Shown here in pieces: positions 18,073-38,072 of a stretch of DNA of 40,204 nucleotides; the first letter of the stretch is position 1; each line of letters opens with the position of its first letter. The stretch is from a virus (Duplodnaviria > Caudoviricetes). Where the stretch lies: the IMG/VR virus record IMGVR_UViG_3300037851_001126, positions 1 to 40,204 of that record; one strand, written 5' to 3'. The notes under the pieces are model-generated. The model did no database searches. It was given only the letters and a program-made list of their open reading frames with translations, and had not been told where the DNA came from. A program made the translations under genes and the position numbers.

Positions 18073-19347
18073 TTACGATTCCTCCTGGTTGGTTTCTTCA
18101 GCGAATAATTCGGGTTTCTCCGTTTGCACGGCGGCCCAGGCCTGGGCGTAGCCGCAGCGGTTGGCCAGCATCTTGGAGCGGACAGCCTCCTCGATCTGCT
18201 GGGGCTTGGTCTTCGCGACGCTGCTGCCGGGCGTCGGTTTGCCCGCGCGATTGTGCAACGCGGGTTTCTCCACCGGCTTGAGCGCCTGGAGCATCTCAAG
18301 ACCCGACTTGCGGTCGTTCAGCAACACCTTGCGCATCGCCTCCTTGTTGGCGATCCGATCGGCGTACTGCGCCAGGTCCGTCTCGACCTGCGCTTCGAGC
18401 AGCTCGCGGCTGTTCTTCTTCAGGTCCGCATTCGCTGTCTCCAGCGATGCAGCCCGATTCTTCAGCGTGGTCACGGCCTCGACGACGGCGCTATCCGCCG
18501 CGTCGGCGGCCAAGCCCAACGCTGTGATCAGTTTGTCCTTCATGTGGGACTCCTTGTGTGTGGGTTTGGTTTCTGCGCCGCTCGGGCCGTTGCCCGTGGC
18601 GCGGTTTGACAGGGGCACCATGCCCCGCAAATTGGGTTGGTTGGTCAGCCCCACCGAGTCGAGCCGACGGGGGCGGACCTTGCCGCCGCCCAGGTCTTCG
18701 CAATCGGCCCGGGCCCAGACGGGCGAGACGAACCGGTACAGTCCATTGGCAATGGCTTCGCGGCCGACCGGGGTCAGATCGATCTTGGCCCACAGCCCGT
18801 TGGACCGCTTGGCCAACTCCTTGATCCAGCCCATGGCGGTCGACGGCTTGTCGGGCTGGTAACTGAAATGGTCCTGGTCCACCAGGATCTCCTCGCCGCC
18901 GTCGCGGAAACTGTTGACCATCGCCTCCAGCGCGGCGTCATCGAGCACCTGGGTCAGCCCGGTCTCGCTGTGCGGGTATTCGCCCGTCGGCGCCACCTGC
19001 ACCCAGCCATCGGCCGGCAAGCTGCGGTTCAACATCGGCATCGCATTCCTCATCACATCCTCCGTGGTCTCCGGTCCCCGGTCTCCGGTCCCCGGTCCCT
19101 CCTTCGCCGCTTTCTCGATCAGGTCGGTCATCTCGCCCACGATCGCCGCCTCGAGTTCGCGGGCGGTATCGGCATCGGTATTGGCCCGGCGCAGCAACTG
19201 CGGCAGGTCCGCCACCAGCTCGCGCAGCTCCTGCAACGCGTCCGCCGCGTCGCCCTGGGCCAGCGCCTTTTCCAGCCGCCGCCGCAACGGCGCCTGGTCG
19301 TTGACCAGCCCCGCCGCCACATCCGCAATCCGTTGTTTCGGGGTCAT
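18073..19347 (-). CDS. Mu-like prohead protease/scaffold (gpI) with an extra N-terminal helical segment
   Basis: VDQDH...AMGWIKEL...GLWAKIDLT..G...YRFVSP...SVGLTNQPNL motifs; possible internal start at 19053 with GGAGG RBS. Confidence 0.9.
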   Translation of the reverse strand: MTPKQRIADVAAGLVNDQAPLRRRLEKALAQGDAADALQELRELVADLPQLLRRANTDADTARELEAAIVGEMTDLIEKAAKEGPGTGDRGPETTEDVMRNAMPMLNRSLPADGWVQVAPTGEYPHSETGLTQVLDDAALEAMVNSFRDGGEEILVDQDHFSYQPDKPSTAMGWIKELAKRSNGLWAKIDLTPVGREAIANGLYRFVSPVWARADCEDLGGGKVRPRRLDSVGLTNQPNLRGMVPLSNRATGNGPSGAETKPTHKESHMKDKLITALGLAADAADSAVVEAVTTLKNRAASLETANADLKKNSRELLEAQVETDLAQYADRIANKEAMRKVLLNDRKSGLEMLQALKPVEKPALHNRAGKPTPGSSVAKTKPQQIEEAVRSKMLANRCGYAQAWAAVQTEKPELFAEETNQEES

Positions 19348-19350
19348 TGC

Positions 19351-19379
19351 TTGACCTCCGCCAGCGGGTGGGCAAAATG
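19351..19379 (+). promoter_or_regulatory. 29-bp promoter-like direct repeat, copy 1
   Basis: TTGACCTCCGCCAGCGGGTGGGCAAAATG; TTGACC-N16-CAAAAT just before ATG 19385. Confidence 0.7.
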
Positions 19380-19384
19380 GCGCC

Positions 19385-19804
19385 ATGACACCCGATCAAT
19401 TCCGTGAGATTTGCGACTGGGCGAACCGCCGCGAGGAGAAGTTCTATGCGTGGCTGCGGTTCCTTGTAGGGCTTGCCGCAGTGTCGCTATCGGTTCTGGC
19501 AGTGCTCCCGTCGGCGGCGGGGGCAACCGCATCGGATACCCTGTTGCGGAAGGTGTCGTGGACAGGACTTGGACTCGGTATCCTGCTTGGAGCATTAGCG
19601 CTGCACGGCGAAGTGTGGATCGAACGCGCGCTGGTGAAGTCGTTGGTGCAACAAAGAACACAACCGACTTGGCCCGGTAGCGACGCAGCGCCTTCGCCCA
19701 TCGTCGCAAAATTGCCCTGGCCGTACCGCTGGGCCGTGCCGGGTTGTTACCTGTCATTGGCAATGGCAGTGGGTTCACTGGTGACCTCCGTGTGGCTGCG
19801 CTGA
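19385..19804 (+). CDS. Membrane protein (3 predicted TM segments), moron
   Basis: Hydrophobic segments; antisense to the late operon; own promoter. Confidence 0.7.
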   Translation: MTPDQFREICDWANRREEKFYAWLRFLVGLAAVSLSVLAVLPSAAGATASDTLLRKVSWTGLGLGILLGALALHGEVWIERALVKSLVQQRTQPTWPGSDAAPSPIVAKLPWPYRWAVPGCYLSLAMAVGSLVTSVWLR

Positions 19805-19808
19805 TCGT

Positions 19809-19837
19809 TTGACCTCCGCCAGCGGGTGGGCAAAATG
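19809..19837 (+). promoter_or_regulatory. 29-bp promoter-like direct repeat, copy 2
   Basis: Identical to 19351-19379; precedes ATG 19843. Confidence 0.7.
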
Positions 19838-19842
19838 AGGAG

Positions 19843-20250
19843 ATGGATTGGCTAACGGAAATCGAATGGGTCGCAGACTGGCAGTTGCGTCTGGGAACAG
19901 TGGAATGTCCGACGGTACCGGGCCGCACGCCTGAAGAACGCGCCCGTGCAGTCGCAGGGCTAGAGCGACGCACCAGCGCGTCCACCGACGCGCTCTGCCG
20001 GCAACTCGCGCGCGGCAACCCCGTGGCAGCGACGGATGCGGAACGGTATTTTCTCCGACAACGGCTGCATCAGGCGTTGCGGTTCCTGGAGGCGGCGGCC
20101 ACACCGTTTCCGGTGCGGGGAGCGCCGGTGCTGCAAGTGCCCGCGTCAGTTGATCCAGAATCGCGGCGCGAGTGGCTGCTGATTGCGCTGTGGGACTCCA
20201 CGCTGCGCGACGAATGGATTGCCAATCCAACAACGAGCACATTCGATTGA
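19843..20250 (+). CDS. Helical hypothetical protein, candidate immunity family member
   Basis: Resembles 38079-38492 (..RLG..; FL..R...AL..LEA; R.WLL..[LV]W). Confidence 0.65.
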   Translation: MDWLTEIEWVADWQLRLGTVECPTVPGRTPEERARAVAGLERRTSASTDALCRQLARGNPVAATDAERYFLRQRLHQALRFLEAAATPFPVRGAPVLQVPASVDPESRREWLLIALWDSTLRDEWIANPTTSTFD

Positions 20251-20358
20251 GCCGCTGCGCATCCAGCCGCTCCCAGTCGTGCCTCTCCTTGACCAGTGCC
20301 ACTTTGGTATTCATCGTGCGCCTCCTGCTGTTTTGCGGCTGGCGCGGCAACGAGCGAA

Positions 20359-20489
20359 TGATGGACATATCCCTTGAGGGACCTGCCACCGCTGACCGTC
20401 AATCCATATTGCTCGAATTCGTTTTGGTGGACTATTGGGAGTTTGCCGTCCGCTACCGATGGGAGCAGCGGCGGCACCATCTGGGGTAA
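20359..20489 (+). pseudogene. Short/truncated third member of the 19843/38079 family
   Basis: PATADRQSILLEFVLVDYWE resembles PSIGDQNRIRSWLLRDVWE and PASVDPESRREWLLIALWD. Confidence 0.35.
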
Positions 20490-20530
20490 GCCCCCACAGT
20501 TCCACAACGAAATTCCACGGCAACACCCGC

Positions 20531-20559
20531 TTGACGCCCGCGCGGGCGGAGAGTAGATT
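20531..20559 (+). promoter_or_regulatory. Sigma70-like promoter TTGACG-N17-TAGATT with CCCGCGCGGG palindrome in the spacer
   Basis: Near-consensus hexamers at 17-bp spacing; spacer related to the 29-bp repeats. Confidence 0.65.
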
Positions 20560-20565
20560 TCCGTC

Positions 20566-20639
20566 AGAGCCTGTTCGGTGCCGGCTGCGGCGTAACCGGA
20601 CAGGAAGTGCCACCACGGCAGCCCGTGAGTCGGTGCTCT
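20566..20639 (+). ncRNA. Putative 74-nt multi-stem structured RNA convergent on the portal-nuclease gene
   Basis: AGAGC/GCTCT closing stem; CCTGTTCGGT/ACCGGACAGG 10-bp stem; TGCC/GGCA and CCG/CGG hairpins; begins at the expected +1 of the promoter. Confidence 0.45.
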
Positions 20640-22420
20640 TATTTCGCATAAATCAGTTCCCCTTTCCGATAGTTGTTCAGCTTTCGGATTTTGCTGACCT
20701 TGTAGAAACTCTCGGCCCCGCCGCGTCGTTGCACCACGAAAACCGTGCCGCCGGAAACCATCCCGCGAGCATCTTTGAAAAGCCCAATATACACATCGTT
20801 GTTGTCCTGCTGCCAAATCTCGACGGGGCTTTTCACCGACGCCTTGGCGTGCGGCAGGAATTCAGCGCGATTCAGTTGGTCGGGGCGTTGAAAATGCGCC
20901 ATCGTCTGACGGTCAAACCTCACTCCGTTGCCCAAAGGATCCATCTCTGTGACGCCCTGCCATAATTCTCGTTCGCCGTCGACCACAGACAAGGATCGTG
21001 GTTCATCCACCGCCAGATGCGCCAGGTCTCGGATGTCCGGTCTCCCGTGTTCTCGCCAGTCTTTGCCAATAAAAAATCGATTGCCGTCGCCGTCGGTTAT
21101 CCATGCATTCACCAACCGATCCCACACCCGCCGCATCCGGTTCACCAGCCCGCCTTCGGCCTCTTCCTCGTCGCCGACAGTCTCCGGTCCCCGGTCTCCG
21201 GTCTCCGGTCTCCGTTCCTGCCGCCGCACCAGCTCATAGCCGGTCCGCTCGCTCAGCTCCTCGAGATCGATCGCGTACCCGGCCTGGGAGAGTTTCACCG
21301 CGTGATCCACCAGCGCGCCCACGTCCTCCTCGTCGGTCGCCGCCAACTCGAAATACGCCAGCGCCGGTTTGCCCGGGAACAACTCCGCCAGCACCAGCGC
21401 GTCCAATCCCTTCTGGAACACCTCGCTGATCTCCAGCGCCTCGGCCCGGGCAATGTCGTCAAACACGTCCCCGTGCTCGCCGCTCGCCCCCTGGCCAATG
21501 CCGGTCGGCCCGCTCAACATCGTCAGTTTCCCGCCCGTGCCGGCCAGCACCAGTTGCTCGGCCAGGTGATCGAGCCGCTGCTTGAACGGCGATTCGCCCA
21601 GGCCCGCCGTCGGAAATTTCGCGTCCCCCCCATACGGCAGCGCGCCGGGGATGCCGTCGGCAATCGCCTCCGCCGCGCTCTTGTATTCCGCCTCTTTCTC
21701 CACCGGCACCTGCGGCGGCATGATGACCACCGGCCGCGGGATGCCGTACACCTCGATGAACGCGTCCCAATCCTTCTCGCTCAGGCCGCTGCGCACATAC
21801 TGGATCAGCGCGATCTCGTTGAGCGGATCTTCCACCTCGCGCACCAGCAGCGTTCCCAAATCCACCGGCTCGCCCACCACACGGCCACTGGCCGAATCGG
21901 CGTTGTACGTCCACGGACCATACAGCCCGTCCCGACACCAGAACCATTGATCCACGCACTCCAGGTGATTGGTCTCGGAGGGCAGGACCGGAGACCGGGG
22001 ACCGGAGACCGGAGACTGAGGACCGCGCACTTGCCGTTCAATGTGCGCGAACCCGCGAAACTCGGCCAGCGCCAGGAACCGGATCGCCGCCCGCAGGTTG
22101 TCGATCTTGTCATACGCCGCCCGCAACGCCGCCGCCTGGTCTTCGGCCAGCGCCTCGTCCACGCCCTCGGTGGACACGGTCTTGATCGCCCAATCGAGCT
22201 TGGCGATCGCGCCCAGCCGACGGGCTTTCAGCGCCCGCAACACCGGGTGCCGTTTCTCGATCATCCGATACAGCCAGGTCAGGTCCGCATACGCCCCGCG
22301 CTCGCCTTCCTCCAGCAGACTGGCCGCCCGCTGAATCGTCAGCCCGCGCAGCGGGTTGTACTGGCTCCGCCACTTGTTGGCCGACGACAAGTGACGCGGC
22401 AGTGTCATCGCTCCGCTCAT
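20639..22420 (-). CDS. Portal protein (Mu gp29/DUF935-like) fused to a C-terminal PBECR2-like nuclease domain
   Basis: DUF935 motifs (GFAHIE, KDWDAFIEVYGIP, GEHGDVFDDI); last ~155 aa lower GC with R..FL...K..P.EIW...YIGLF...RKGELIY pattern. Confidence 0.85.
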   Translation of the reverse strand: MSGAMTLPRHLSSANKWRSQYNPLRGLTIQRAASLLEEGERGAYADLTWLYRMIEKRHPVLRALKARRLGAIAKLDWAIKTVSTEGVDEALAEDQAAALRAAYDKIDNLRAAIRFLALAEFRGFAHIERQVRGPQSPVSGPRSPVLPSETNHLECVDQWFWCRDGLYGPWTYNADSASGRVVGEPVDLGTLLVREVEDPLNEIALIQYVRSGLSEKDWDAFIEVYGIPRPVVIMPPQVPVEKEAEYKSAAEAIADGIPGALPYGGDAKFPTAGLGESPFKQRLDHLAEQLVLAGTGGKLTMLSGPTGIGQGASGEHGDVFDDIARAEALEISEVFQKGLDALVLAELFPGKPALAYFELAATDEEDVGALVDHAVKLSQAGYAIDLEELSERTGYELVRRQERRPETGDRGPETVGDEEEAEGGLVNRMRRVWDRLVNAWITDGDGNRFFIGKDWREHGRPDIRDLAHLAVDEPRSLSVVDGERELWQGVTEMDPLGNGVRFDRQTMAHFQRPDQLNRAEFLPHAKASVKSPVEIWQQDNNDVYIGLFKDARGMVSGGTVFVVQRRGGAESFYKVSKIRKLNNYRKGELIYAK

Positions 22421-36393: not shown

Positions 36394-37800
36394 ATGCCTG
36401 ACACCCTCACATTCGCCCCCATGCCCCACGATGAAGCCTCCCGCTTCATCCGTCTCAAGCCGTCCATCTCCCGCCAGGTCTTCGACCAGATGCTGCCCGA
36501 ACTCCAGGCCCGCACCTTCGTCATCTCCGGGATCGAAAACCTCAAGATCATGCAGACCGTCCGCGACGCCATCGCCAAAATCCCCGAAGGCGCCGACTGG
36601 GACGCCACCAAACGCACCGTCACCGACCTCATCGCCTCCATCGGCGACAAAGCCCCGCAACGCGCCGAAACCCTCCTGCGCACCCACGTCTTCCAAGCCT
36701 ACGCCGCCGCCGAACACCGCGCCCTCACCACGCCCGAAAACCTCGAAGTCTTTCCCTTTTGGCAGTACAAAACCATGGGCGACGACCGAGTCCGCGACTC
36801 ACACGCCGCGCTCGACGACCTCATCCTGCCGTCCAACGACGTCTTCTGGAAGACCCATTTCCCACCCTGGGAATGGGGCTGCCGCTGCCAGGTCATCCCA
36901 CGCCTGCGCGCCGAAGTCGACGAAATCAAACAGCGCGAACGCGATCTGCCGCCCGAGAAAAAAACCGTCATCGACCACGACCAACCCGCCCGCCTGGCCC
37001 GCCTGCGCGCCGGCACCCTCGACCGCCAACTGCCGGCCACCGACCCGCGCGGCCCCGACGTCGGCCTCGCCCAGCTCGGCCAGTCCCGCACCTGGGACGT
37101 CACCTCCGACGCCGAGCGAGGCAAAGAAGGCGCCCTCCAGTGGGATCCCGGCTCCCTCAACCTCGACATCGCCGACCTCAAAACCAAGTACGACCCCGAT
37201 CTCTGGCTCGCCTTCGAGACCGCCATGCGCGCCCACCAAATCCCCGAACTCGGCGCCTCCGCCTGGGAATGGGTCACCCGCAACACCCCCCAATGGACCG
37301 CCACCGTCAATGCCAAAACCCGCACCAGCGTCATCGCCCGCATCGAGTCCGGTATCCGCGGCAAAACCAGCGGCGAGGTGGCTTTCGTTGTCGGTGCCGA
37401 TGGTGTAAATTATCCCGTGAAACAGGCAGCAGGAACAACCATGATTCTCTCCAGCCAAGAGCTCCAACAATTCGCCGGCAAGACTGGAATACACAATCAC
37501 CCGGCCTCCAGCGCGTACTCACCCGAAGACCTGCGCAGTTTCGTGGACTCCGGTGCCGTCGAGTGGCGCGTGGTCGGACCGGAAACCAGTTATATAATGC
37601 GCCGTCCACCTGGCGGCTGGCCAAAGGATGTACATGACAAAATTAACGGGCTGGAAAAGCGCTACTTTGCGATCGCTGCGCGTCGTGAACGGTATGGACA
37701 CGATCGTATCGACCTAGATAAATGGGCGGCCCATCGCATTTGGAGCGATTGGGCTAACGATGTTGGGGCCCCATTTCAATTCATAGCGGAGATGCCATGA
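36394..37800 (+). CDS. MuF head morphogenesis protein with C-terminal JAB-like candidate toxin domain
   Basis: FWQYKTMGDDRVRDSHAALD...FWKTHFPPWEWGCRCQV (MuF); C-terminus E...HNHPASSAYSPED, lower GC. Confidence 0.88.
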   Translation: MPDTLTFAPMPHDEASRFIRLKPSISRQVFDQMLPELQARTFVISGIENLKIMQTVRDAIAKIPEGADWDATKRTVTDLIASIGDKAPQRAETLLRTHVFQAYAAAEHRALTTPENLEVFPFWQYKTMGDDRVRDSHAALDDLILPSNDVFWKTHFPPWEWGCRCQVIPRLRAEVDEIKQRERDLPPEKKTVIDHDQPARLARLRAGTLDRQLPATDPRGPDVGLAQLGQSRTWDVTSDAERGKEGALQWDPGSLNLDIADLKTKYDPDLWLAFETAMRAHQIPELGASAWEWVTRNTPQWTATVNAKTRTSVIARIESGIRGKTSGEVAFVVGADGVNYPVKQAAGTTMILSSQELQQFAGKTGIHNHPASSAYSPEDLRSFVDSGAVEWRVVGPETSYIMRRPPGGWPKDVHDKINGLEKRYFAIAARRERYGHDRIDLDKWAAHRIWSDWANDVGAPFQFIAEMP

Positions 37801-38072
37801 CAGAAAAAAAGTACATCATAGATGGCGATAATCACTTACTCGGGGGCACAGCCAAATCAGGTAAGGAACTGGTTGATATGTATTGGCGTCTTGACCAAGA
37901 AGGAGCATTGCTGTTTGCCGACGAATATGAAGGTTTGCGGCGTGAACTGGACCGTTATGAAGGGCAACCCGACTCTGATCTGGACGCCTACAGGCGTTGG
38001 CGCCTCGACCGCCTCCGCACCTTCTTCGTCGCTCACCCCAATCCGCCACCCGCCCCCAAAGATCAGCCATGA
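37797..38072 (+). CDS. Candidate cognate immunity protein of the MuF toxin
   Basis: 91 aa, ATGA-coupled to MuF, same low-GC block. Confidence 0.55.
   Translation: MTEKKYIIDGDNHLLGGTAKSGKELVDMYWRLDQEGALLFADEYEGLRRELDRYEGQPDSDLDAYRRWRLDRLRTFFVAHPNPPPAPKDQP

Follow-up and report, generated by a model that had tools for sequence, protein, structure and literature searches.

Described relatives and the portal-PBECR2 locus

The antitoxin RNAs in type III toxin-antitoxin systems are pseudoknot-type molecules. As set out in excerpts of PMC8167048, type III systems such as ToxIN pair an RNase toxin with a small RNA encoded upstream of it as tandem repeats on one transcript, and in the type I pair txpA/RatA, carried by a prophage-like element, a small RNA converges on the toxin gene at its 3' end. 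AbiF/RCd22, in which a prophage toxin is neutralised in cis and in trans through binding by an adjacent ncRNA (bioRxiv 10.1101/2025.04.15.648962, accessible part), provides by analogy a precedent for RNA that neutralises a prophage toxin by binding. MuF polymorphic toxins carry a variable toxic tip on a head protein with a putative immunity element behind it, in exchangeable cassettes, and a small putative immunity ORF, on the same strand, lies behind 89.4% of the MuF toxin genes (PMC5576092, in excerpt). The PBECR domain and its fusion to portal and MuF proteins have been described in PMC5512222, section 19 of which predicts an active site of His plus Ser/Thr; the available passages of that article on PBECR name no immunity factor or adjacent RNA. 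The DUF3800-, drum- and skipping-rope RNAs exemplify how several structured RNAs without relation to each other can accompany a single protein family on either strand (PMC5737381, in excerpt).

The window analyzed here is an entire virus record of 40.2 kb, its assembly confirmed by four DNA sequencing runs, three of which are possible sources. It encodes a transposase and proteins for transposition, along with a Mu-type protease I, a terminase and a major head protein, and the phage is of the transposable, Mu-like kind. Records titled Verrucomicrobiota contain most of the related MuF genes, which makes this the likely host group. A minus-strand gene at 20,639-22,420 encodes a Mu-type portal protein with a C-terminal PBECR2 domain (P0002; 593 aa from the ATG, in an ORF open from 22,552), and ends in a TAA stop codon at 20,639-20,641. 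The protein matches PF06074 (E 5e-31) and PF18810, the PBECR2 profile (E 6.4e-8), the latter with 33.3 bits and hence above the curated cut-off of 27.1. The predicted RNase domain (20,648-20,953, minus strand) keeps both predicted catalytic residues, His79 in helix 74-79 and Ser141 in strand 138-145 (P0001 numbering).

The fold model of the domain has a pLDDT of 88. In the VIA comparison it came closest to BECR-type toxins, namely CDI toxins, colicin D, colicin E5 and BrnT, but weakly (Z 3.8-5.1, rmsd 3.0-4.0), and Foldseek returned no match to the model at E ≤ 0.001. A homolog search of 1.84 billion representatives gave 49 matches at E ≤ 0.001, and H79, R88, E104, W106, R155 and G157 are invariant in an alignment of 47 domains. 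When the window domain itself served as query, IMG/VR, cultured phages, plasmids and GTDB yielded no relative, and the A7 clade scan found no locus. Among the relatives PBECR2 is carried by portal, MuF and minor capsid proteins, and related MuF genes bear other tips or none, as befits a variable C-terminal toxin-type tip on a head protein. The window has a MuF gene of its own (PF04233; 36,394-37,800, plus strand), with a long, different tip that contains an HNHP motif and has no Pfam match; an overlapping 91-aa ORF follows it (region 36,394-38,072, plus strand) in the classical immunity layout, and the two are likely a second toxin with its protein immunity gene.

Convergent with the portal-PBECR2 gene lies a predicted structured RNA. 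Its likeness to type III systems is that of an RNase toxin beside a small RNA that would act on the protein; in contrast to them, the RNA is a single unit that lies downstream, on the opposite strand and behind its own promoter, the toxin is a BECR domain on a virion protein, and neither an upstream antitoxin with a shared promoter nor near-identical tandem repeats were found. The window RNA would act like the type III and AbiF antitoxins, although it has the layout of neither. It resembles the MuF systems in its variable tip, in the position of the element behind it and in the exchange of cassettes, except that an antisense structured RNA takes the place of the same-strand ORF and the carrier in the window is the portal. 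The geometry is also compatible with a convergent type I RNA that may be complementary to the toxin transcript; unlike in txpA/RatA, the nuclease is part of a structural protein of 593 aa, and a tertiary fold is retained by the RNA. Other PBECR2 clades show other folds, which recalls the DUF3800-, drum- and skipping-rope motifs; from these the window RNA differs in being tied to another protein and in lacking an Rfam match in the window or in 40 loci scanned.

Predicted promoter and fold of the window RNA

The predicted RNA promoter is sigma70-like, with the -35 hexamer TTGACG at 20,531-20,536 and the -10 hexamer TAGATT at 20,554-20,559 (plus strand) separated by a 17-nt spacer; the predicted start, A20566, lies 7 nt after the -10 box, and both boxes and start are present where the original prediction had placed them. 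Within 5 kb, three sites of this kind are found against 0.6 ± 0.8 in shuffled sequences. The predicted RNA of ~74 nt spans 20,566-20,639 (plus strand), its 5' end being deduced from the promoter and its 3' end being approximate. The promoter points into the RNA and then into the nuclease gene, not into an ORF; no terminator was called at the RNA, and no U-tract follows the element.

The predicted fold comprises two hairpins with complementary loops. Hairpin 1 (20,570-20,604, plus strand) has a 10-bp stem (20,570-20,579/20,595-20,604) with the anticipated GCCG/CGGC cap, surmounted by an inner stem (20,580-20,582/20,589-20,591), the loop GGCUGC (20,583-20,588) and a 3-nt bulge (20,592-20,594); hairpin 2 (20,606-20,637, plus strand) presents the loop GCAGCC (20,618-20,623). 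The pairing of the two loops, initially entered as a possible pseudoknot, is now the best-supported feature of the element, by virtue of the loop-loop covariation described below. Other parts of the original prediction fared less well: instead of the 10-bp stem plus two small hairpins there are two hairpins in all, and the AGAGC/GCTCT stem supposed to close the RNA is absent from the MFE structure and costs 3.6 kcal/mol when forced, most relatives consisting of two adjacent hairpins. A tRNA-like cloverleaf finds no support: ARAGORN found 0 tRNAs, two hairpins do not make a cloverleaf, and support is lacking for the closing stem as a family feature.

Folding of 20,566-20,639 on the plus strand yields -39.1 kcal/mol (z -3.45, with 0 of 200 shuffles as good), while the minus strand of the same segment folds no better than chance (z -1.40). 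The segment is the sole match in the window to the covariance model R1. Scans against Rfam 15 gave 0 matches above the gathering threshold in the window and 0 in the 40 loci scanned of 347, the best weak match having an E value of 1.9.

The closest relative is P0003 (locus L003), in which a PBECR2 domain 69% identical to that of the window sits on a MuF protein instead of a portal and is accompanied by an RNA that is 90% identical. Following the stop codon, 66 of 73 nt are identical between the two loci, as compared with 99 of the last 150 coding nt and 23 of the 50 third positions at the coding end. The -35 box is retained in L003 in five of six positions and at the same distance, the -10 box reads TATAAG, and identity amounts to 7/17 in the 17-nt spacer and 21/60 upstream. 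By eye, a C-to-U change leaves a U-G pair on the plus strand and a mismatch on the other, and among the kissing pairs one is changed on both sides and one is broken in L003.

A 112-aa ORF (20,311-20,649, minus strand) overlaps the nuclease stop codon, which qualifies the earlier statement that no protein gene is coupled downstream; the statement holds insofar as the ORF behaves as non-coding. One could read it as a protein immunity gene over which the RNA fold is incidental, given that its ATG overlaps the last codons of the nuclease gene and that, in the window as well as in L003, no stop interrupts its frame across the RNA. Yet the substitutions between the two are not codon-like, with five of seven changed codons non-synonymous and 23 of 25 third positions unchanged; beyond the RNA only six of 32 amino acids are identical, and the ORF lengths are 112 aa in the window and 60 aa in L003. 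A coupled ORF of at least 50 aa is present in only 11 of 27 motif-bearing genes, and beyond the near-identical RNAs these ORFs have no common sequence by eye. From these comparisons the ORF is judged to be a non-coding shadow of the RNA, so that no small protein immunity ORF is recognized directly downstream of the window PBECR2, and we consider the protein gene reading scarcely credible.

Further repeats were noted nearby. A 34-nt repeat (94%; 19,346-19,379 and 19,804-19,837, plus strand) contains a sigma70-like promoter, and its copies precede two small moron-like ORFs (19,385-19,804 and 19,843-20,250) opposed to the late genes. Heptamer-like repeats of GGTCTCC units lie in frame in the protease, portal and terminase genes (19,066-19,107, 21,172-21,227 and 21,981-22,023), and similar pieces are found in many contigs of the sequencing runs. 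In runs X2-X4, which were inspected over 19,969-21,648, contig depth is higher over the nuclease-RNA block than over the moron ORFs and the contigs diverge near 19,969-20,092, hinting at the presence of the block in other phage contexts.

Occurrence, covariation and mobility

Sixty-eight distinct gene ends were gathered via MuF alignments, domain alignments and genome searches. Forty-four of them, including a few near-duplicates, make up the core, for which sufficient flanking sequence, a C-terminal RxG region and E < 1e-15 (or else an orphan tail) were required. The antisense architecture in this core consists of a promoter, hairpin 1 (stem, 3-nt bulge, 3-bp stem and a loop of 6-7 nt) and hairpin 2 with a complementary loop. 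Using a detector that chooses hairpin 1 blind to the partner loop, but that was written after these loci had been seen, motif and complement were found in 25 of the 44 ends on the antisense strand; the sense strand gave one in 44, and shuffled sequences gave 12 in 440. Promoters that scored at least 8 of 12 showed the same strand preference (24/44 antisense, 2/44 sense). The element also occurs in Riverbug, a cultured Thermus phage, and in the Meiothermus phage MMP7, and the kissing helix there shows a compensatory change. In addition, 26 of 281 genomes from the phylum to which a genome titled Rhodospirillaceae belongs proved to contain PF18810. Among 39 further gene ends from other phyla, retained after dropping three (one duplicate, one at a contig end and one seen before), motif and complement were present antisense in 16, with none of 39 in sense and none of 195 shuffles, the loop limit of the detector having been widened to 8 nt after Riverbug and MMP7 had been seen. 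The loops of these further ends are less diverse (10 distinct loops, seven self-pairing, 20% cross-pairing).

The conserved structure that the original prediction expected beside homologous nucleases is therefore present, as a covarying RNA with an antisense promoter, across several phyla. The detector fails at 19 of the 44 core ends and 23 of the 39 further ends, some of which are register variants by eye while others have other folds, and it had no match behind the internal-domain proteins L263, L278, L281 and L282. The covariance model R1 finds only two of 42 later loci and is therefore limited to its clade. A U-tract comes after hairpin 2 in 15 of the 39 core genes considered, compared with two of 73 short MuF genes.

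Several variants of the element were observed. Short stand-alone PBECR2 genes with frames of about 170-300 aa (L321-L323, L337, L342, L344, L345) have a version closed by an extra basal stem, and L251, L252 and L265 have a longer three-hairpin version, in which loop pairs co-change between paralogous cassettes by eye. In L059, L117, L120 and L130, and in the orphans of L041 and L124, a further conserved block of hairpins and a terminator come after the kissing domain, making it a second such block. Other PBECR2 clades (L324, L326, L327, L329, L331, L334, L335; L330, L339, L340; L317-L320) have antisense promoters after the stop codon together with different, conserved-looking structured elements, with no Rfam match in those scanned. 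At L315, an unrelated sequence that by eye resembles the end of an insertion element occupies the RNA position after the PBECR2 stop.

Covariation was assessed in two ways. With hairpin-2 loops taken from independent folding, a complementarity score of at least 5 was reached by the own pairs of 16 of 28 RNAs (23 distinct loops) compared with 3.8% of 742 cross pairs, and none of 20,000 loop permutations exceeded 3.66, the observed value being 4.64. In a MAFFT alignment of 24 motif-bearing RNAs, not fitted to structure, 74.5% of the cells were paired, against 54.7% in shuffled alignments (0/500 as high) and 38-43% in slid ones. Two-sided changes occur in this alignment at all 10 lower-stem pairs of hairpin 1 and at all six kissing pairs, counts that are inflated by the relatedness of the RNAs; only 63.9% of the kissing-pair cells are paired because some rows are off by 1-5 columns. 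Sixteen rows of further loci, selected for having the motif, reached 89.3% paired cells. The loop-to-partner spacing is 28-34 nt in 23 of 25 RNAs, and a near-invariant core, U-G-C...G-C-N-A-U-A, is discernible (TGC in 22/25, the NAU bulge in 18/25). The element, as judged by the aligned sequences, is a conserved two-hairpin kissing-loop RNA in which sequences diverge while stems and loop-loop pairs covary.

The association with PBECR2 appears specific. Behind MuF genes lacking the domain the detector fired in 13 of 152 cases, mostly on weak hairpins, and an antisense promoter was present in two of 73 short MuF genes. Model R1 gave 40 matches at E < 0.01 over 298 sources (1.5 Mb), 24 of them training rows and several duplicates, and by coordinates all 40 lie antisense at or within about 600 nt of the end of a PBECR-type gene. 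An RNA-first exact-pattern scan of IMG/VR gave two matches (L308 and L309), both beside PBECR2. A covariance model scan of 150 genomes, a weak test with only 33 candidates scored per genome, gave five weak matches (E 0.003-0.05) that were taken as chance because all overlap long ORFs and PBECR2 is absent from the 1.5 kb around them. An antisense promoter also follows the stop codon in 17 of 79 MuF genes that bear other long tips, some with a stable fold, and L089, L079, L095, L097, L153, L164 and others are possibly further RNA-nuclease pairs.

RNAs also occur away from a complete nuclease gene. In L041, behind the gene and its own RNA, there is a tail of 43 aa that is the same as in L059 and is accompanied by the L059 RNA. 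L124 lines up three RNAs that differ from one another and have a promoter apiece; an orphan tail precedes one of them, and another has no tail. L259 and L277 have two RNAs in tandem each. The window RNA is present in one copy, the arrays elsewhere comprising different RNAs. The nuclease tip and its RNA pass from phage to phage as a single cassette, like polymorphic toxin-immunity pairs. RNA and nuclease are only loosely matched in similarity, as far as the compared loci tell: L130 and L059 have RNAs that are 90% identical and nucleases that are 36% identical, L288 and L293 have nucleases at 89% and RNAs at 66%, and the overall correlation (Mantel r 0.44) is that expected from linkage alone. 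In six genes the predicted catalytic His79 is replaced and yet the RNA is intact, by Asp in L059, L117 and L120 (three of the four nucleases with the second hairpin block) and by Tyr in L118, L140 and L283, which also lack the RxG motif. L118 and L140 had been considered as dead nucleases without RNA, an assignment that was rejected since the RNA sits within their last codons. The ORF after the PBECR2 gene of a Leptolyngbya phage was likewise rejected as an immunity gene, being Phage_tail_S.

Possible functions of the RNA

Established at the level of sequence, in our view, are how the RNA folds and its loops pair, which strand it occupies, the conservation of its promoter boxes, its link to PBECR2 on different carriers, and the stacked orphan cassettes. 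Because the RNA occupies the immunity position, keeps its tertiary shape while its loops drift, moves with the tip and is hoarded as orphans, it is best read as a protein-binding antidote, and with modest confidence we favor an immunity factor that would bind and block the predicted portal-fused RNase, type III-like in action but not in layout. In such a mechanism the RNA promoter would be active in the lysogen and in infection, and the PBECR2 domain, as an active RNase, would be packaged into the head and be delivered when the phage infects; the compact RNA would bind the nuclease by shape, through the bulged stem and the kissing helix and not through loop sequence, and would thereby protect the producer and lysogens from cognate or related nucleases. 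Of the immunity originally envisaged, by a tRNA mimic or an antisense RNA, the RNA-based immunity endures as the best reading, the antisense route being the weaker of the two options. Arguing against immunity are the six genes without His79 that keep the RNA, the loose coupling of RNA and nuclease, the gene ends at which the detector fails, the broken kissing pair of L003 and the weak structural matches of the domain.

The RNAs kept beside domains without His79 would be explained if the RNA were a ligand or cargo of PBECR2, perhaps packaged in the head, with a role in assembly or, once injected, as for instance a specificity factor or a decoy that engages a host defence protein, and no inhibitory function. 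A loop-loop RNA at the portal resembles the phi29 pRNA. PBECR2 carriers are head proteins, and the inactive domain of Mu gp30 has been predicted to bind RNA (PMC5512222, section 19). A general assembly part, however, should not be absent behind most related MuF genes, where the motif occurs in only 13 of 152; the RNA has a host-type promoter opposed to the late genes, the spacing of 28-34 nt between loop and partner suits intramolecular pairing and not a ring, and the orphan arrays are better accommodated by collected immunity. On balance we think a ligand or cargo role unlikely.

A type I-like antisense RNA that anneals to the late mRNA immediately beyond the stop codon, and so reduces leaky nuclease in the lysogen, would have the convergent 3' layout of txpA/RatA and of fst/RNAII (PMC8167048, in excerpt). 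Any late transcript that reads through would of necessity be complementary to the RNA, and in L118, L140 and L292 it overlaps the last codons of the nuclease gene. But action in cis requires neither a covarying tertiary fold nor a near-invariant core, several different RNAs at one locus would be redundant, and silencing of an essential portal mRNA presumably cannot disarm a virion-borne protein; we therefore hold this to be quite improbable. Still less probable, in our estimation, is a mere promoter with terminator or processing hairpins of the late operon or a moron, unrelated to the nuclease. Two other plus-strand promoters do serve nearby small ORFs, and U-tracts do follow hairpin 2 in part of the core, but in the window the promoter faces the RNA and no terminator is called, and such an account leaves unexplained both the covariation of the kissing pairs and their restriction to PBECR2 ends.

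No description of this RNA was found in a search of main texts of the open-access literature, related motifs being conceivable in the supplements of PMC5737381 and PMC5512222, and no mention of ncRNA was found in passages of bioRxiv 10.64898/2026.08.28.747851. The RNA family tied to PBECR2 nucleases is real and apparently undescribed: it is absent from Rfam, covaries strongly, is tied to one phage nuclease family, and ranges over Verrucomicrobiota, Thermus/Meiothermus and the sample of a third phylum. We suggest tentatively, and at somewhat less than even confidence, that virion RNases use RNA immunity more generally, that prophage RNA arrays would constitute a memory against rivals, and that the other folds behind PBECR2 genes and MuF tips may belong to the same class. 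If the RNA is an antidote, it would be an RNA immunity factor for a polymorphic, virion-carried toxin, of which we found no description, and would explain the missing immunity gene of these nucleases. Since Riverbug, which is grown on T. thermophilus HB8, carries the pair, the targets of PBECR domains and the way in which the phage survives them become testable.
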